From Escherichia coli (lineage in GTDB: Bacteria; Pseudomonadota; Gammaproteobacteria; Enterobacterales; Enterobacteriaceae), in the NCBI RefSeq assembly GCF_045037415.1, contig NZ_CP173438.1: a stretch of DNA of 64,000 nucleotides; one strand, 5' to 3'. The notes beneath the pieces are model-generated. The model saw only the letters and a program-made list of their open reading frames with translations. It did no database searches and was not told the origin of the DNA. Shown one piece after another: positions 46,500 to 54,020 of the stretch. Numbering within the stretch: position 1 is the stretch's first letter; every line of letters starts with the position of its first letter. The position numbers and the translations under genes were made by a program.

Positions 46500-48136
46500 C
46501 AGTCCTTATGTTGCGTATCACACAATACCGCTGCCCGTACCGGATCGATTGCCACCAGCGTTCCCAGCAGGATTTCCATTTTTCGGTTCAGCAGGGCTTT
46601 ATCCGCATAGCGGTGCGCCCGCAGACGCAGCAGTTTCAGTTGTCGGGCTTTTACTTCAAACAGCAGCTCTGGCTCCCACTGTGTCAGCGTTATTCCCTGT
46701 GCGGCGGTATCCAGTTCTTCCAGCAGCAGGAGCGCCATCTCGTTTTTACCGTACTGTTCCGCCACCCGTGCCATCAGCAGTCGCAATAACAGGCGCTGTC
46801 GTGCCGTGGTGATGCCCGGACGGGTCTGTATCCAGCCCAGCGCCGCTTCCACGCCCTGACTGTCAGCCATCTCCAGTGCTTCCGGCTCCAGCGCCAGTAC
46901 GTCATTTGTGGCGTCGTCTGTCGGCACAGCGGCTTTCCCCGCAAGCCATGCGCCGTCTTCCCGCATCATGACCTGCTGCGCTATCCAGTTGCGCGTCACC
47001 TCATCGGCAAACGGCGTGCCGTCGTTCCATGCCAGATTTTCCAGCCCCGGCAGGCGCTCCAGCAGCAGCGCCAGGTCCTGACGGATAACCGCTGTCCATC
47101 TGTCCCACGGTGCGCCCGCCTTCGCCAGCGCCTGATGCAGATACCACTGGATATCCAGCCAGAAATGGCTGACACCGGTGCTGAACATCAGGTCGGCCTG
47201 CTCCAGCAGTTCCGTCCAGTTCTGCTGGGCATACAGCCGCTTAAGCTGGTTGCGTGATTCGGTGCGCGGCGGGGCCAGCCGGGTTTTGCCGTCCACGTCC
47301 GGCGGCAGTTCATGCACCGTGTCCCAGCGCAGGGTTTTCATCAGCCGGTGTGCTGAAAGCCAGCCCTGCGGCTGTTCGTTCAGATAACGGGCCAGCACTT
47401 TCGCCTGGTCGAGTAGGTCGCGCCCGGAGGTGATGGTCTGTACCTGCGGCGCATCCACCGGGGAAGACGGTGCCGGAACGCCGCTGCTGTTTTGCGGCAC
47501 CACCGCGTTCATCCCGCCCGACTGCGCCAGACGTGATTCCAGCGCGTTAATCAGCGGCATCAGGGAGGGGGAATGCTGGTCTTCGGGCCATGCAGTGAAG
47601 GAAACCGACAGTTGATTAAGAGCGGCAACAATGTTCGCAAAATCCTCTTTTGCCACCTCCGGGTAGCGGGCAAGGCTGTCGAGCATCTTTTCCCCCGCCA
47701 GCCACTCCAGCGCCATTTTTCGGCTTGCCGGTCGCGAGGGCAGCAGTTGCGTACCGAAGCGTTCCACCAGCCCGGCTAACAGCGCCAGTCCTTCAGCCAG
47801 TCCGCGCTCACCGTCGCGGTGCAGTCGCGCCCAGATGTAGTAAGTGGCGATGCGCACGTCTTTGGCCTGCGTCAGCAGCAGGGATTCGGCAAGCTGGCAG
47901 ATAAGGCCGGTATCGGCACCGGACAGTTTGTTCATTTCGTCGCGGATACGCAGGAAATCGTCGTGGTAGCCGGGGTCTTCCCCGACCGGCGTGTCTGCCG
48001 TCACCGGCAGCAGCCATGTCTGCCACAGCGCCGCCTGTGTTCGCGCCACATCCAGTGCATCCCGGTCGGCAAAACAGCTACGGGTCAGCTTTTGCAACAG
48101 TTCACTCATCGGCGTCTTCCCCATACTCTTCCGCAT
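46499..48136 (-). CDS. tssA: T6SS protein TssA (ImpA_N domain)
   Basis: 545 aa; ImpA_N pattern PVGEDPGYHDDFLRIRDEMNKL. Confidence 0.7.
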   Translation of the reverse strand: MRKSMGKTPMSELLQKLTRSCFADRDALDVARTQAALWQTWLLPVTADTPVGEDPGYHDDFLRIRDEMNKLSGADTGLICQLAESLLLTQAKDVRIATYYIWARLHRDGERGLAEGLALLAGLVERFGTQLLPSRPASRKMALEWLAGEKMLDSLARYPEVAKEDFANIVAALNQLSVSFTAWPEDQHSPSLMPLINALESRLAQSGGMNAVVPQNSSGVPAPSSPVDAPQVQTITSGRDLLDQAKVLARYLNEQPQGWLSAHRLMKTLRWDTVHELPPDVDGKTRLAPPRTESRNQLKRLYAQQNWTELLEQADLMFSTGVSHFWLDIQWYLHQALAKAGAPWDRWTAVIRQDLALLLERLPGLENLAWNDGTPFADEVTRNWIAQQVMMREDGAWLAGKAAVPTDDATNDVLALEPEALEMADSQGVEAALGWIQTRPGITTARQRLLLRLLMARVAEQYGKNEMALLLLEELDTAAQGITLTQWEPELLFEVKARQLKLLRLRAHRYADKALLNRKMEILLGTLVAIDPVRAAVLCDTQHKD

Positions 48137-49881
48137 CCTTCATACTCCTGCCGGTCAGAAATACCTGTCCCGGCAGGCGGAAGTTTTTCAGTTCCAGCAG
48201 CGCCAGCGGCCCTTTACCCTGTTCAACCCGCAGCAGGTAATTCAGTGGCAGGCCGTCCTGCGCTTTCCACACCACTTTAAAGGTGCTGCTGTCGACCGGT
48301 GTTACCTGCGCCCGTTCCAGCAGGCGAATAAGGCTCCAGCTTCCCCGGTAATCCGCCAGTATGCGTTCCATCGCCTGTGTGCTGGTCCAGCTCAGCGATG
48401 CGCCGGGTTGCCACTGTTCATCCGGCCAGTTAAAACGCTGCCAGCGTTCTTTCTGGTTGAAATACTCCAGTTCCTGCCCGTCAATCACCAGATGCGTTTT
48501 CATCACGTCACGCGCCGGTTTTGCCCGCAGTTCGAAATGTATTCCGGCATCGCCGCTGGCAAAGGCGGTATCGGCCACATCGCGCAGGCGGTTCAGGGCG
48601 CGGATAAAGTCCGGGTTGACCGTCAGCCCCTGCGTGTTCATGGCGTCAGCCACCCAGTAGCGGCCTTCACGTTTCAGAACACCGGAAAGGTTGGCGGCGA
48701 TAAACTGGTTGATGCGTCCGTCATCGCGCAGGTACTGCGCCAGCAAGGGAAGAGAGGCATCGTTCTGTGAGGCTTTGAACGGATAGCGGCCAGCGAAGTC
48801 CTGATTCCAGTGACTGACAATCGCCCGTTGCCACTGGCGGTTCAGGCTGTCCGCTGCGGGCGTCAGCACCTGCCGCCACGACTGTTCCACCGGGCGGACG
48901 AACAGCGCCTGACCGAAGCCACTCCATTCTTCGCCCAGACTGGCGGCGATTAACCGCCCGTAGTCGCGGGTGTCGGTGAGGTCAACGGTTTTGCCCTGTA
49001 AAACCGTCTGCGCCAGTTGCTGGGTCATCTCCTGCGGGTCGGGGGCGTTGGTCACCTGTTGCAGTTTGAGGCGTACGCGGGTGACGCGGGTCAGATACGT
49101 TTGCAGGTTGAGTTGCGTATCACCACCACCGCCTCCTGACTTATCGCCCAGCAACCGCAGCAGCGGCGCGAAGGTTTTATCCAGCGGCCCGGCAGGCACG
49201 TCGCCTTCACGGGATTGCTGCGGCGTTTTCTCCTTGCCGTTAAACAGTTCCTGTGCCGATTTCGCCAGCGAGTCTGACAGGCCACGATTTTCCCTGCCTG
49301 TTGCCACCTGCCACGCAATAGTGTCTGTCAGTGCAATCAGTGGCGACTGACGGGCATCGGCCATCAGCGTCAGCTGGTCGAGAATGCCGGAGAGCGAGTC
49401 TTCCTTTTTCCAGCGAATGCTGTTGAGAAACGCCAGCCAGCTTCCGGCAAAGTCGGTAAAGTAGCGTGAGGTGAGGCGGTTACGCAGCGTATCCGGCGAG
49501 ATATCAGCAGAGGTATCCTGCTGGCGGTCGCTGAGTACCCAGTCGATTTCCTCGCGCCGCGCCGTCACCACCTGCTCGATAGCTTCCCTGACCTGTCCTT
49601 CCCATGCCTGACGGGTGAACATCCCCGGCACCGTCTGTTCCGTACTGAAAAGAGATTCAGTGAGGGTATCCCCGGTCATGTCCGCCAGCGTCATATCGGC
49701 GTAGTTGCGGGACACCTGTTGCAGCACGTTCTGGTAGAGGGTGTTTTCGGCATTACGCACACCAATCTGGCGCAGCAGGATTTTACGCACCGCGCCGGTC
49801 AGTTCCGGTGGCGGTGAGGTTTTCCACTGCGGGTGTTCCGGCAGGTTCGCCATCCAGAAGGTCAGCAGTTGCGTATTACCG
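48102..49881 (-). pseudogene. tssM: tssM (IcmF-like) 3' portion, separated from its 5' portion by an IS
   Basis: About 593 codons of periplasmic-domain-like sequence; the ORF's apparent ATG (49902-49904) lies inside the IS terminal repeat. Confidence 0.6.
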
Positions 49882-49954
49882 TGAAGGAGATCGGTGAGTA
49901 ACATCGATGGAGATCGGTTCGTGTCACTTTCACAGAACCGTTTTTAAATTACCT

Positions 49955-52257: not shown

Positions 52258-52438
52258 AGGTATCCTTTACCGGAATGGCAAAAGATACAGATCAACACAC
52301 CTGTGAAGTTCCAATAACATTGATGGAGATCACTGAATAACAAAATGAGTCAAAAGTGATCTCCATCGATGTTATTCAGCGATCTGTTCAAATGTTATTA
52401 CCCGATCTCGATGGAAGTTATTGAGTGATCTCCTTTCA

Positions 52439-54020
52439 TGAAAATACGCAGCAGTGACGGCAACACGCTCTGCCGCACGCCTTCCGGGATATTTTCATAG
52501 CGCAGGCCGTCTGCCATCAGCGTGGTACTGAAAAAGGCAGCGTCGGCCTTTTCCGGGCGGGAAGTCATCAGCAATGCCTTAAGCTGCTTATAGCGTTGTT
52601 CACCGGTGGCGGTACGCTGAGGACTGTTGGGCGGCAGGGCGACAAAGGCGTTCAGTTGCTGTTGCAGATGGTCAACGGCCACGTCGCGCACCAGCCGGTT
52701 TGCCGCCTGCGCATAGCCGGGAAAGGCGGCGGCGAGCAGTTGCTGGTTACGTTCAGGGCCAAAACGCTGATACCACGGCGCACCTTCGCGGATACGGTAT
52801 TGCAGGCGTTCCAGTTCGCCCTGCAGGGTATGCAGCGCCACCAGTTGTTCTGCCAGCGGCAGGCGGGTATCGAGCGCCCGCGCCGTCTGGATGCTGGTTT
52901 CCTGAACAAGTGCGCGGTTGGCGAAGAACGAGGTCGTCATTCCGGCCCCCCCTATCGCCAGCACGCAGACAGCGGACATCAGTGCGGTACGCAGCCACGG
53001 AAAGCCCACCGCGCGGCCCCGCGCGTTATCGCCGGTGATGCCTGCCCAGACCGGCGACGGCAGCCACGCATGAGGTGCGGCCTCCGGTACGGCGGCAAGC
53101 GGCGGGCTGAACATCAGGCCGCGCAGGCGCAGGGAAGAAAATGCGCCGCCTGCCAGCAGCGGTTTCAGGACGGTCTGCCAGTGGGTGATACCCCGCTCTG
53201 CAAGGGTATGGGCCAGACGCAGCAGAAAATCATGGCGGTTATCGGTCAGCAGCTGCGACATGCCCTGTTCCGTCAGCGGTAGGGTCTGTGCTTCCAGCAT
53301 TGCAGCCAGTTGTTCCGGGGTACAGCCTTCCGGCAGCAGGCAGCCGACGCTTTGCAGGACGCGCCCGGACTGATAATCACCGTTGTCACAGACCTGCCAC
53401 AAATAGAATGGGGCCTGAAAACCGAGTCGCTTACCGCCGTTTATCAGTTCGCGCCAGCCTTTGTCGAGTTGCGCTGTCTGGCGGCTCTGTTCTTCTGTCA
53501 GCGGCCAGATGATGCCGTCCAGCGGACGGCTGCGGCGCAGTTTTTTTAAGGCGGTCAGTAGCGCGACATCAGGCTCCGCTGATGGCCTGCCGCCGTATAT
53601 CAGCACCGTGTGGTCGCCCTCCAGCCAGTGTTGCCCGGTCAGCCCCGGCGCGATGGCCTCTGCCTGTTCAGGCTCGCCGGTCACCAGCAGCAGGCGGATT
53701 TTACGCCGCCAGAATGGGCCGTAGCGGTCGCGCAGGAAGGCGGCGAGTTCCACCATTGCCGGATGACGGCTGTCGGCTTTCTTTGTCGTCACCGCACGAT
53801 AGTCATCTCCGGCGGCAAGCTGTCTGCGGAGTTCAAAGTTCTGCACGGCAGCGTGGCGGTTCAGCAGATGATAAACCCCCATGATAATCAGAAAGACCAC
53901 GCCTGCGGCAATCACGCCAGCCATCCAGTACATTTGCTGTGAGCTACCCGGTTCAACGCCCAGCAATGCCGGTTTACGGTGAATAAACGTGCAAAGCGCA
54001 ACCACAACAGCCACGGTCAT
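52439..54020 (-). pseudogene. tssM: tssM (IcmF-like) 5' portion: TM hairpin, cytoplasmic domain, third TM, start of periplasmic domain
   Basis: Start proposed at MTVAVVVALCTF (the ORF-track start at 54338 overlaps the upstream gene); three hydrophobic segments; frame runs into the IS and ends after 8 IS-encoded codons. Confidence 0.55.

Follow-up and report, generated by a model that had tools for sequence, protein, structure and literature searches.

An ISEc12 insertion in tssM of an Escherichia coli T6SS-1/i2 cluster, as known from ST131 clade C/H30

The window analysed here is a stretch of 64,000 nucleotides from Escherichia coli (contig NZ_CP173438.1, assembly GCF_045037415.1). On its minus strand the tssM gene is cut in two by a single copy of ISEc12, as seen from the open reading frames and from an analysis of the boundaries. 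One ordinary transposition of ISEc12 into tssM, the same event as that described in ST131 clade C/H30, very probably accounts for this arrangement, and the T6SS is in all likelihood inactive as a consequence.

The split gene and the inserted element

From the start of tssM to its end, the parts of the locus are the following.

52398-54020, minus strand: tssM 5′ open reading frame, with its start ATG at 54020 and its end at 52398
52451-54020, minus strand: tssM 5′ fragment, 1570 bp including one copy of the target-site duplication; codons 1-523 plus 1 nt
52451-52455, no strand assigned: target-site duplication copy GCAGT (ACTGC in gene orientation)
52398-52450, minus strand: IS-derived tail of the 5′ reading frame, from translation and junction sequence; 2 nt of a hybrid Leu524 codon, 16 IS-encoded codons (RIFMKGDHSITSIEIG) and a TAA stop
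49870-52450, minus strand (same orientation as tssM): ISEc12, IS21 family, 2581 bp, TG...CA termini
50716-52257, minus strand: istA, IS21-family transposase, 513 aa (NCBIfam NF033546 transpos_IS21, 310.5 bits against a cut-off of 160; RefSeq annotation)
49955-50704, minus strand: istB, IS21-like helper AAA+ ATPase, 249 aa (NCBIfam NF038214 IS21_help_AAA, 270 bits against a cut-off of 200; RefSeq annotation)
49865-49869, no strand assigned: target-site duplication copy GCAGT
48102-49869, minus strand: tssM 3′ fragment, 1768 bp; rest of the periplasmic domain
48102-49904, minus strand: tssM 3′ open reading frame, 600 aa

As an earlier, sequence-only reading of this DNA had proposed, tssM is split between 48102 and 54020 by an IS21-family element. 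All the reading frames are on the minus strand, and IstA and IstB both score above the NCBIfam cut-offs. Of the domains of TssM, the 5′ fragment keeps the N-terminal transmembrane hairpin and the cytoplasmic domain; beyond the third transmembrane segment, which it also encodes, it extends ~160 residues into the periplasmic domain. In strain 4/1-1 PGAP labels this stretch 'ImcF-related family protein, incomplete, missing C-terminus'. Translation gives a 5′ product of 524 TssM residues followed by 16 IS-coded residues, where eight IS codons had been counted before. The 3′ fragment takes over within the IcmF-related domain and continues through the IcmF helical and IcmF C2-like domains. It lacks a native start codon, and hydropathy reveals no transmembrane or hydrophobic segment of its own. 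Its mechanical reading frame opens with an ATG (49904-49902) that had rightly been placed within the IS end, 33-35 nt inside, and that adds 12 non-native residues.

The break falls at codon 523/524 of tssM, ~160 residues beyond the third transmembrane segment (~residues 338-365) and inside the Pfam IcmF-related domain PF06761 (residues 394-709). It thus lies in the periplasmic domain and not at the cytoplasmic/periplasmic boundary, to which it had been assigned.

The element shows 100% identity over its whole length (bases 1-2581) to sequences named 'IS21-like element ISEc12 family' by RefSeq/PGAP, which occur on chromosomes of E. coli and on plasmids of E. coli, Shigella and Klebsiella. Its outer bases are TGCGTATT, starting at 49870, and AATACGCA, ending at 52450. 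The terminal inverted repeats are imperfect, with several GGAGATC-type motifs repeated in both ends. The GC content is ~0.60 in tssM against ~0.46-0.50 within the element.

The junctions and the uninterrupted gene

The ends of ISEc12 are placed at 49870 and 52450 by full-length matches to the element and, in agreement with them, by flank-only matches that end at the same bases. The ends first given, 49882 and 52438, are each 12 bp too far in; flanks joined at those earlier positions show no direct repeat and run into a premature stop at codon 533. This boundary error is the sole reason why a clean target-site duplication had been missed, as GCAGT is present on both sides once the ends are corrected. 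Its length of 5 bp is within the range of 4-8 bp for the IS21 family. Excision in silico of 49870-52455, comprising the IS and one copy of the duplication, yields an uninterrupted reading frame of 1110 aa, somewhat shorter than the ~1125 aa to which the two parts had been said to sum. Joining the flanks with both copies of the duplication kept breaks the frame. The reconstructed empty site occurs at full length in 915 complete E. coli genomes, with 100% identity in SE15 among others.

The sequence-only reading had allowed for a rearrangement between IS copies. In such a case recombination of two copies of ISEc12, through inversion or deletion, would have placed the two halves beside the IS, with intervening DNA missing or rearranged. 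Partners for such an exchange exist, the genomes that carry ISEc12 having a median of three places that match it, and the boundaries at 49882/52438, which lack a direct repeat and lead to a stop at codon 533, would have pointed the same way. The true ends, however, are flanked by an exact 5-bp duplication, their excision leaves an unbroken frame, and many genomes have an uninterrupted site that agrees at 100% identity with a 600-bp reconstruction of the empty site across the junction. The simple insertion proposed from the start is thus upheld by the exact duplication and the restored 1110-aa frame, which exclude a rearrangement between IS copies; the probability left to recombination is negligible. 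Virtually no weight attaches either to the idea that the IS within tssM is an assembly artefact produced by a collapsed or misplaced repeat, which would have undone the earlier reading. ISEc12 is multicopy in these genomes and such repeats often cause misassembly, but of 5426 complete E. coli genomes 327, all finished independently, contain both IS/tssM junctions with 100% identity, and a published screen recovered the insertion in 2465 clade C/H30 assemblies (PMC10711316).

The identity of the restored protein rests on an alignment with a TssM of solved structure and on its domains. Residues 6-1098 align with residues 21-1113 of the TssM of EAEC (PDB 6IXH/6HS7, E = 5e-285), and Pfam places PF06761 at 394-709, PF21070 at 859-963 and PF06744 at 967-1071, a set of IcmF-related, IcmF helical and IcmF C2-like domains. 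Hydropathy peaks exceed the threshold at ~residues 28-55 and ~338-365, and a short hydrophobic N-terminus is read from the sequence. The NCBIfam equivalog TIGR03348 scores 262.7 bits, below its cut-off of 388.15, and matches only residues 342-1088, because the N-terminal cytoplasmic part, which is of the EAEC Sci-1 type, does not match the model; hence the PGAP name 'ImcF-related family protein'. Given the alignment with EAEC TssM, this shortfall is judged to be a limitation of the model and not evidence against the identity of the protein.

Predicted consequences for the secretion system

TssM is an inner-membrane core subunit of T6SS-1/i2. [quoted passage not shown] The C-terminal periplasmic domains of TssM would then be unable to reach the periplasm, so that the TssJLM membrane complex could not assemble and the T6SS would very probably be inactive despite the intact state of the other tss genes. 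These C-terminal domains, as the solved EAEC complex shows, are in contact with TssJ and build the trans-envelope channel. As far as the DNA itself can tell, the T6SS in the window is probably non-functional.

The neighbours of tssM comprise tssA, tssE, tssF, tssG, tssJ, a VasL-domain gene, vgrG genes, a PAAR-domain gene and Tle1. The other tss genes in the window are all intact, and over 34.4 kb the region is separated by a single indel from a strain of the same lineage. That the cluster has otherwise changed so little presumably reflects a recent event. A search of NCBIfam assigned no family to the 404-aa protein upstream of tssM, to the 149-aa and 200-aa proteins or to the 472-aa PAAR-domain protein, and the Pfam match of the latter is the PAAR motif only (residues 10-66), its C-terminal toxin domain giving none.

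The PAAR-domain gene adjoining tssA carries a +1 frameshift in the window, due to an extra A at 45589/45590. The effector and immunity cargo, described earlier as retained, is thus retained only in part. The frameshift allele is common to only 6 of the 5426 complete genomes. Strain 447 has the same frameshift together with frameshifts in the VasL-domain gene and in istA that are absent from the window. In the few genomes that have it, the lesion would be in keeping with a system that, already disabled, has begun to decay.

Could the T6SS still work? It would do so if the split TssM fragments associated with one another, if another tssM were present elsewhere, or if the IS were lost precisely, as a rare event, in a subpopulation. 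The intact tss genes and the single indel in 34.4 kb are in keeping with a working system, and three clade C genomes with an uninterrupted site have been reported (PMC10711316). The in-frame ATG within the IS end makes a cytoplasmic C-terminal fragment possible in principle. However, the 3′ fragment, being devoid of a hydrophobic segment, should stay in the cytoplasm, and the domains that it encodes act in the periplasm in the EAEC complex. A scan of 49600-52700 for promoter and terminator consensus sequences detected no outward promoter near the IS end that faces the 3′ part of tssM; its one promoter-like site lies in istB, against 2.9 expected by chance. The result gives no support for expression driven by the IS, although such scans are weak. 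An intact second tssM, which would have overturned the sequence-only reading, is absent from the reference strain EC958, where a tBLASTn search of the chromosome found no other copy (PMC10711316). The frameshift in the PAAR-domain gene of the window also fits relaxed selection. Taken with these observations, continued function is very improbable.

It is similarly doubtful that the locus is anything other than simply dead. The near-perfect conservation of the remaining genes might reflect selection on the immunity genes, which would afford protection against T6SS attack by relatives, or a residual role of the downstream genes or of the C-terminal TssM fragment, which would in this case be IS-driven and cytoplasmic. 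The frameshift in the PAAR-domain gene would then mark a sub-lineage in which selection had lapsed. The one basis for continued selection is that decay is absent, for which the youth of the clade is an equally good explanation. An ordinary transposition of ISEc12 that very probably disabled the T6SS is the preferred account of the locus.

The ST131 clade C/H30 lesion and other known systems

The insertion of ISEc12 in tssM was described in E. coli ST131 clade C/H30, with EC958 as the reference, by Cummins et al. (2023, Microb Genom; PMC10711316). In EC958 it is flanked by the duplication ACTGC and leaves tssM fragments of 1570 and 1768 bp, and it was found at an identical position in 99.78% of clade C/H30 genomes (PMC10711316). 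A larger survey has confirmed tssM::ISEc12 in the clade (PMC12282107). Judged by its sequence, the insertion in the window is this clonally inherited marker lesion of ST131 clade C/H30, already known. We infer that the source belongs to that lineage from the common allele and from the near-identity of the window to genomes of human isolates with the same allele. The lesion serves in the literature as a marker of the pandemic multidrug-resistant ST131 clade C/H30, and it is also cited as evidence that the success of the clone in colonising the gut is independent of the T6SS. The copy in the window adds no new biology and probably places the window in this lineage; the frameshift in the PAAR-domain gene, present in a few genomes, is the one small addition.

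EC958 and the window are alike in the IS, the duplication, the fragment lengths and the T6SS-1/i2 cluster with its neighbours, and the tssM/IS region shows no difference between them. The additional +1 frameshift in the PAAR-domain gene is a feature of the window. The element itself is a standard member of the IS21 family, from which it does not differ. It has in common with IS21, IS100, IS640 and others an istA gene, encoding a transposase with HTH and DDE parts, followed by istB for the AAA+ helper, as well as TG...CA ends, imperfect inverted repeats with internal motifs and a short target-site duplication. EAEC Sci-1 TssM (PDB 6IXH, 6HS7, 4Y7M) matches the restored 1110-aa protein from end to end and in its set of periplasmic domains. 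The gene in the window is interrupted, however, and with its annotated start the protein falls 19 residues short of the 1129 of its EAEC counterpart. Other multidrug-resistant lineages of E. coli have undergone a parallel loss of the T6SS (PMC10711316); the resemblance to the window lies in the loss, predicted for the window, of a core function of the T6SS by a successful multidrug-resistant clone. Beside those lineages, the window has a cluster in which an IS has broken a single gene and the other tss genes in view have all been kept.

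Structure of the interrupted tssM locus

The gene tssM (48102-54020) is split by an IS21-family element, as a sequence-only reading had claimed; the observation is real and its interpretation is right in outline. The ORF scan finds four frames, all on the minus strand.

48102-49904, minus: tssM 3' ORF, 600 aa
49955-50704, minus: istB ORF, 249 aa (NCBIfam IS21 helper ATPase IstB)
50716-52257, minus: istA ORF, 513 aa (NCBIfam IS21 transposase)
end at 52398, containing the ATG at 54020, minus: tssM 5' ORF

GC content is ~0.60 in the two outer ORFs and drops to 0.46-0.50 in the middle two. 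Of the products of these two, the 513-aa protein scores 310.5 bits for the IS21 transposase family (cut-off 160) and the 249-aa protein 270 bits for the IstB family (cut-off 200).

The element starts with TGCGTATT at 49870 and ends with AATACGCA at 52450 on direct reading. The ends proposed earlier, 49882 and 52438, are too short: in an inverted-repeat search (pair I19) complementarity reaches beyond them, and joining the flanks there gives a stop at codon 533. TG...CA termini are typical of IS21-family elements, and this element carries them. The 2581-bp sequence is 100% identical, from base 1 to base 2581, to chromosomal and plasmid copies annotated as 'IS21-like element ISEc12 family', and in junction searches the IS-only and flank-only matches stop at identical bases. 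Because these full-length matches and breakpoints coincide with 49870 and 52450, the ends are independently supported. The pentamer GCAGT abuts the element on both sides (49865-49869 and 52451-52455), where the sequence-only reading saw no clean target-site duplication, and deletion of 49870-52455 leaves a single unbroken ORF that starts with the ATG at 54020, ends at the stop at 48102 and has 1110 codons. The duplication and the exact restoration of the frame settle the matter in favor of a simple insertion, which had been the earlier proposal.

The broken protein and its predicted effect on secretion

The interrupted gene is tssM. Residues 6-1098 of the protein restored by this deletion align with residues 21-1113 of the structurally solved EAEC TssM (PDB 6IXH, 6HS7; E = 5e-285), and Pfam places the IcmF-related domain at 394-709, the IcmF helical domain at 859-963 and the IcmF C2-like domain at 967-1071. 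The N-terminus is itself a short hydrophobic stretch, and hydropathy peaks exceed the threshold at about residues 28-55 and 338-365. PGAP names the protein 'ImcF-related family protein' because NCBIfam TIGR03348 matches only the C-terminal two thirds (residues 342-1088) and scores below its cut-off (262.7 against 388.15 bits). This equivalog model misses the cytoplasmic N-terminal part of TssM proteins of this subclass, despite the end-to-end alignment with EAEC TssM.

The insertion lies at codon 523/524, about 160 residues past the third hydrophobic segment. The break falls within the periplasmic IcmF-related domain, rather than at the junction between cytoplasmic and periplasmic parts that the earlier description implied. 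The predicted 5' product consists of 524 TssM residues followed by 16 IS-coded residues (RIFMKGDHSITSIEIG). The start codon of the 3' ORF is an ATG within the IS terminus, which gives the ORF 12 non-native residues; it lacks any hydrophobic segment. The C-terminal periplasmic domains are predicted to be unable to reach the periplasm, so that the membrane complex would not form and the T6SS would be inactive; established knowledge of TssJLM and the solved EAEC structures point to this loss of function.

State of the cluster and its surroundings

The island containing tssM follows a stretch of core chromosome.

1-29568: core chromosome with araE, ygeA, lysR, lysA, galR, aas, recC, ptrA, recB and recD in order
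beyond 29568, before the T6SS island: argA, amiC, then a sugar-utilisation block
~38971 (VasL-domain gene) to window end: T6SS island
45074-46499, minus: 472-aa PAAR-domain gene, adjoining tssA

The island carries tssE, tssJ, tssG, tssF, the PAAR-domain gene, tssA and the split tssM, together with three vgrG modules, whose cargo comprises a lytic transglycosylase, Tle1 accompanied by proteins with DUF3304 and DUF4123, and an M23 peptidase. The vgrG genes at 56545-59058, 62424-64000 and just past the window are mutually 87-98% identical over 1.4-2.3 kb, and such repeats could serve as recombination sites within the effector region. No NCBIfam family was found for the 404-aa protein directly upstream of tssM (54077-55291), the 149-aa protein in a low-GC stretch (55369-55818) or the PAAR-domain protein's C-terminal ~400 residues (45074-45610/45555-46499); presumably they serve as accessory, immunity or toxin modules.

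Compared with strain 4/1-1, which has the same tssM allele, window positions 29569-64000 show one indel in 34.4 kb, and seven SNPs were reported in a published comparison with a strain of clade A (PMC10711316). A cluster so little changed otherwise is consistent with a recent insertion. The sole indel is an extra A at 45589/45590 (GAGAACC versus GAGACC) that breaks the PAAR-domain gene up into one ORF of 314 aa and another of 178 aa. The earlier statement that the cargo is retained is therefore not fully accurate for this genome. Among 5426 complete E. coli genomes, 6 have an exact match to the 40-mer that includes the extra A and 817 have the allele lacking it; in strain 447 (NZ_CP183089.1) PGAP marks the gene 'frameshifted'. 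A sequencing error shared by these genomes is less likely, as the run at this site is just two bases long; the loss of tssM may instead have been followed by secondary decay of this T6SS cargo gene. Strain 447 has further frameshifts, absent from the window, in the VasL-domain gene (2400-3778) and, within this ISEc12 insertion, in istA (14147-15690); these could be real decay or assembly indel errors.

Distribution of the allele and its identity in ST131

Junction queries of 300 bp of flank and 300 bp of IS each were searched against the 5426 complete genomes. Of these, 327 have both tssM/ISEc12 junctions as full-length matches with 100% identity, and the reconstructed empty site is found at full length in 915, with 100% identity in SE15 among others; these counts exclude an assembly artefact. 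The insertion is one inherited event.

The finding is already published: Cummins et al. 2023 (PMC10711316) described tssM interrupted by ISEc12 in EC958, the reference strain of ST131 clade C/H30, with no second tssM by tBLASTn. The same insertion position was reported in 99.78% of clade C/H30 genomes, and 97% of the genomes in clades A and B had an uninterrupted tssM (PMC10711316). A later large survey, in which the system is named T6SS i2, repeats the result (PMC12282107). In EC958 the duplication is ACTGC, and the lengths flanking the insertion are 1570 bp and 1768 bp (PMC10711316). This pentamer is GCAGT read on the opposite strand, and the tssM pieces in the window measure 1570 bp (52451-54020) and 1768 bp (48102-49869). 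Judged by these matches, the window carries the tssM::ISEc12 allele published for clade C/H30, identical to that of EC958 in its duplication and in both fragment lengths.
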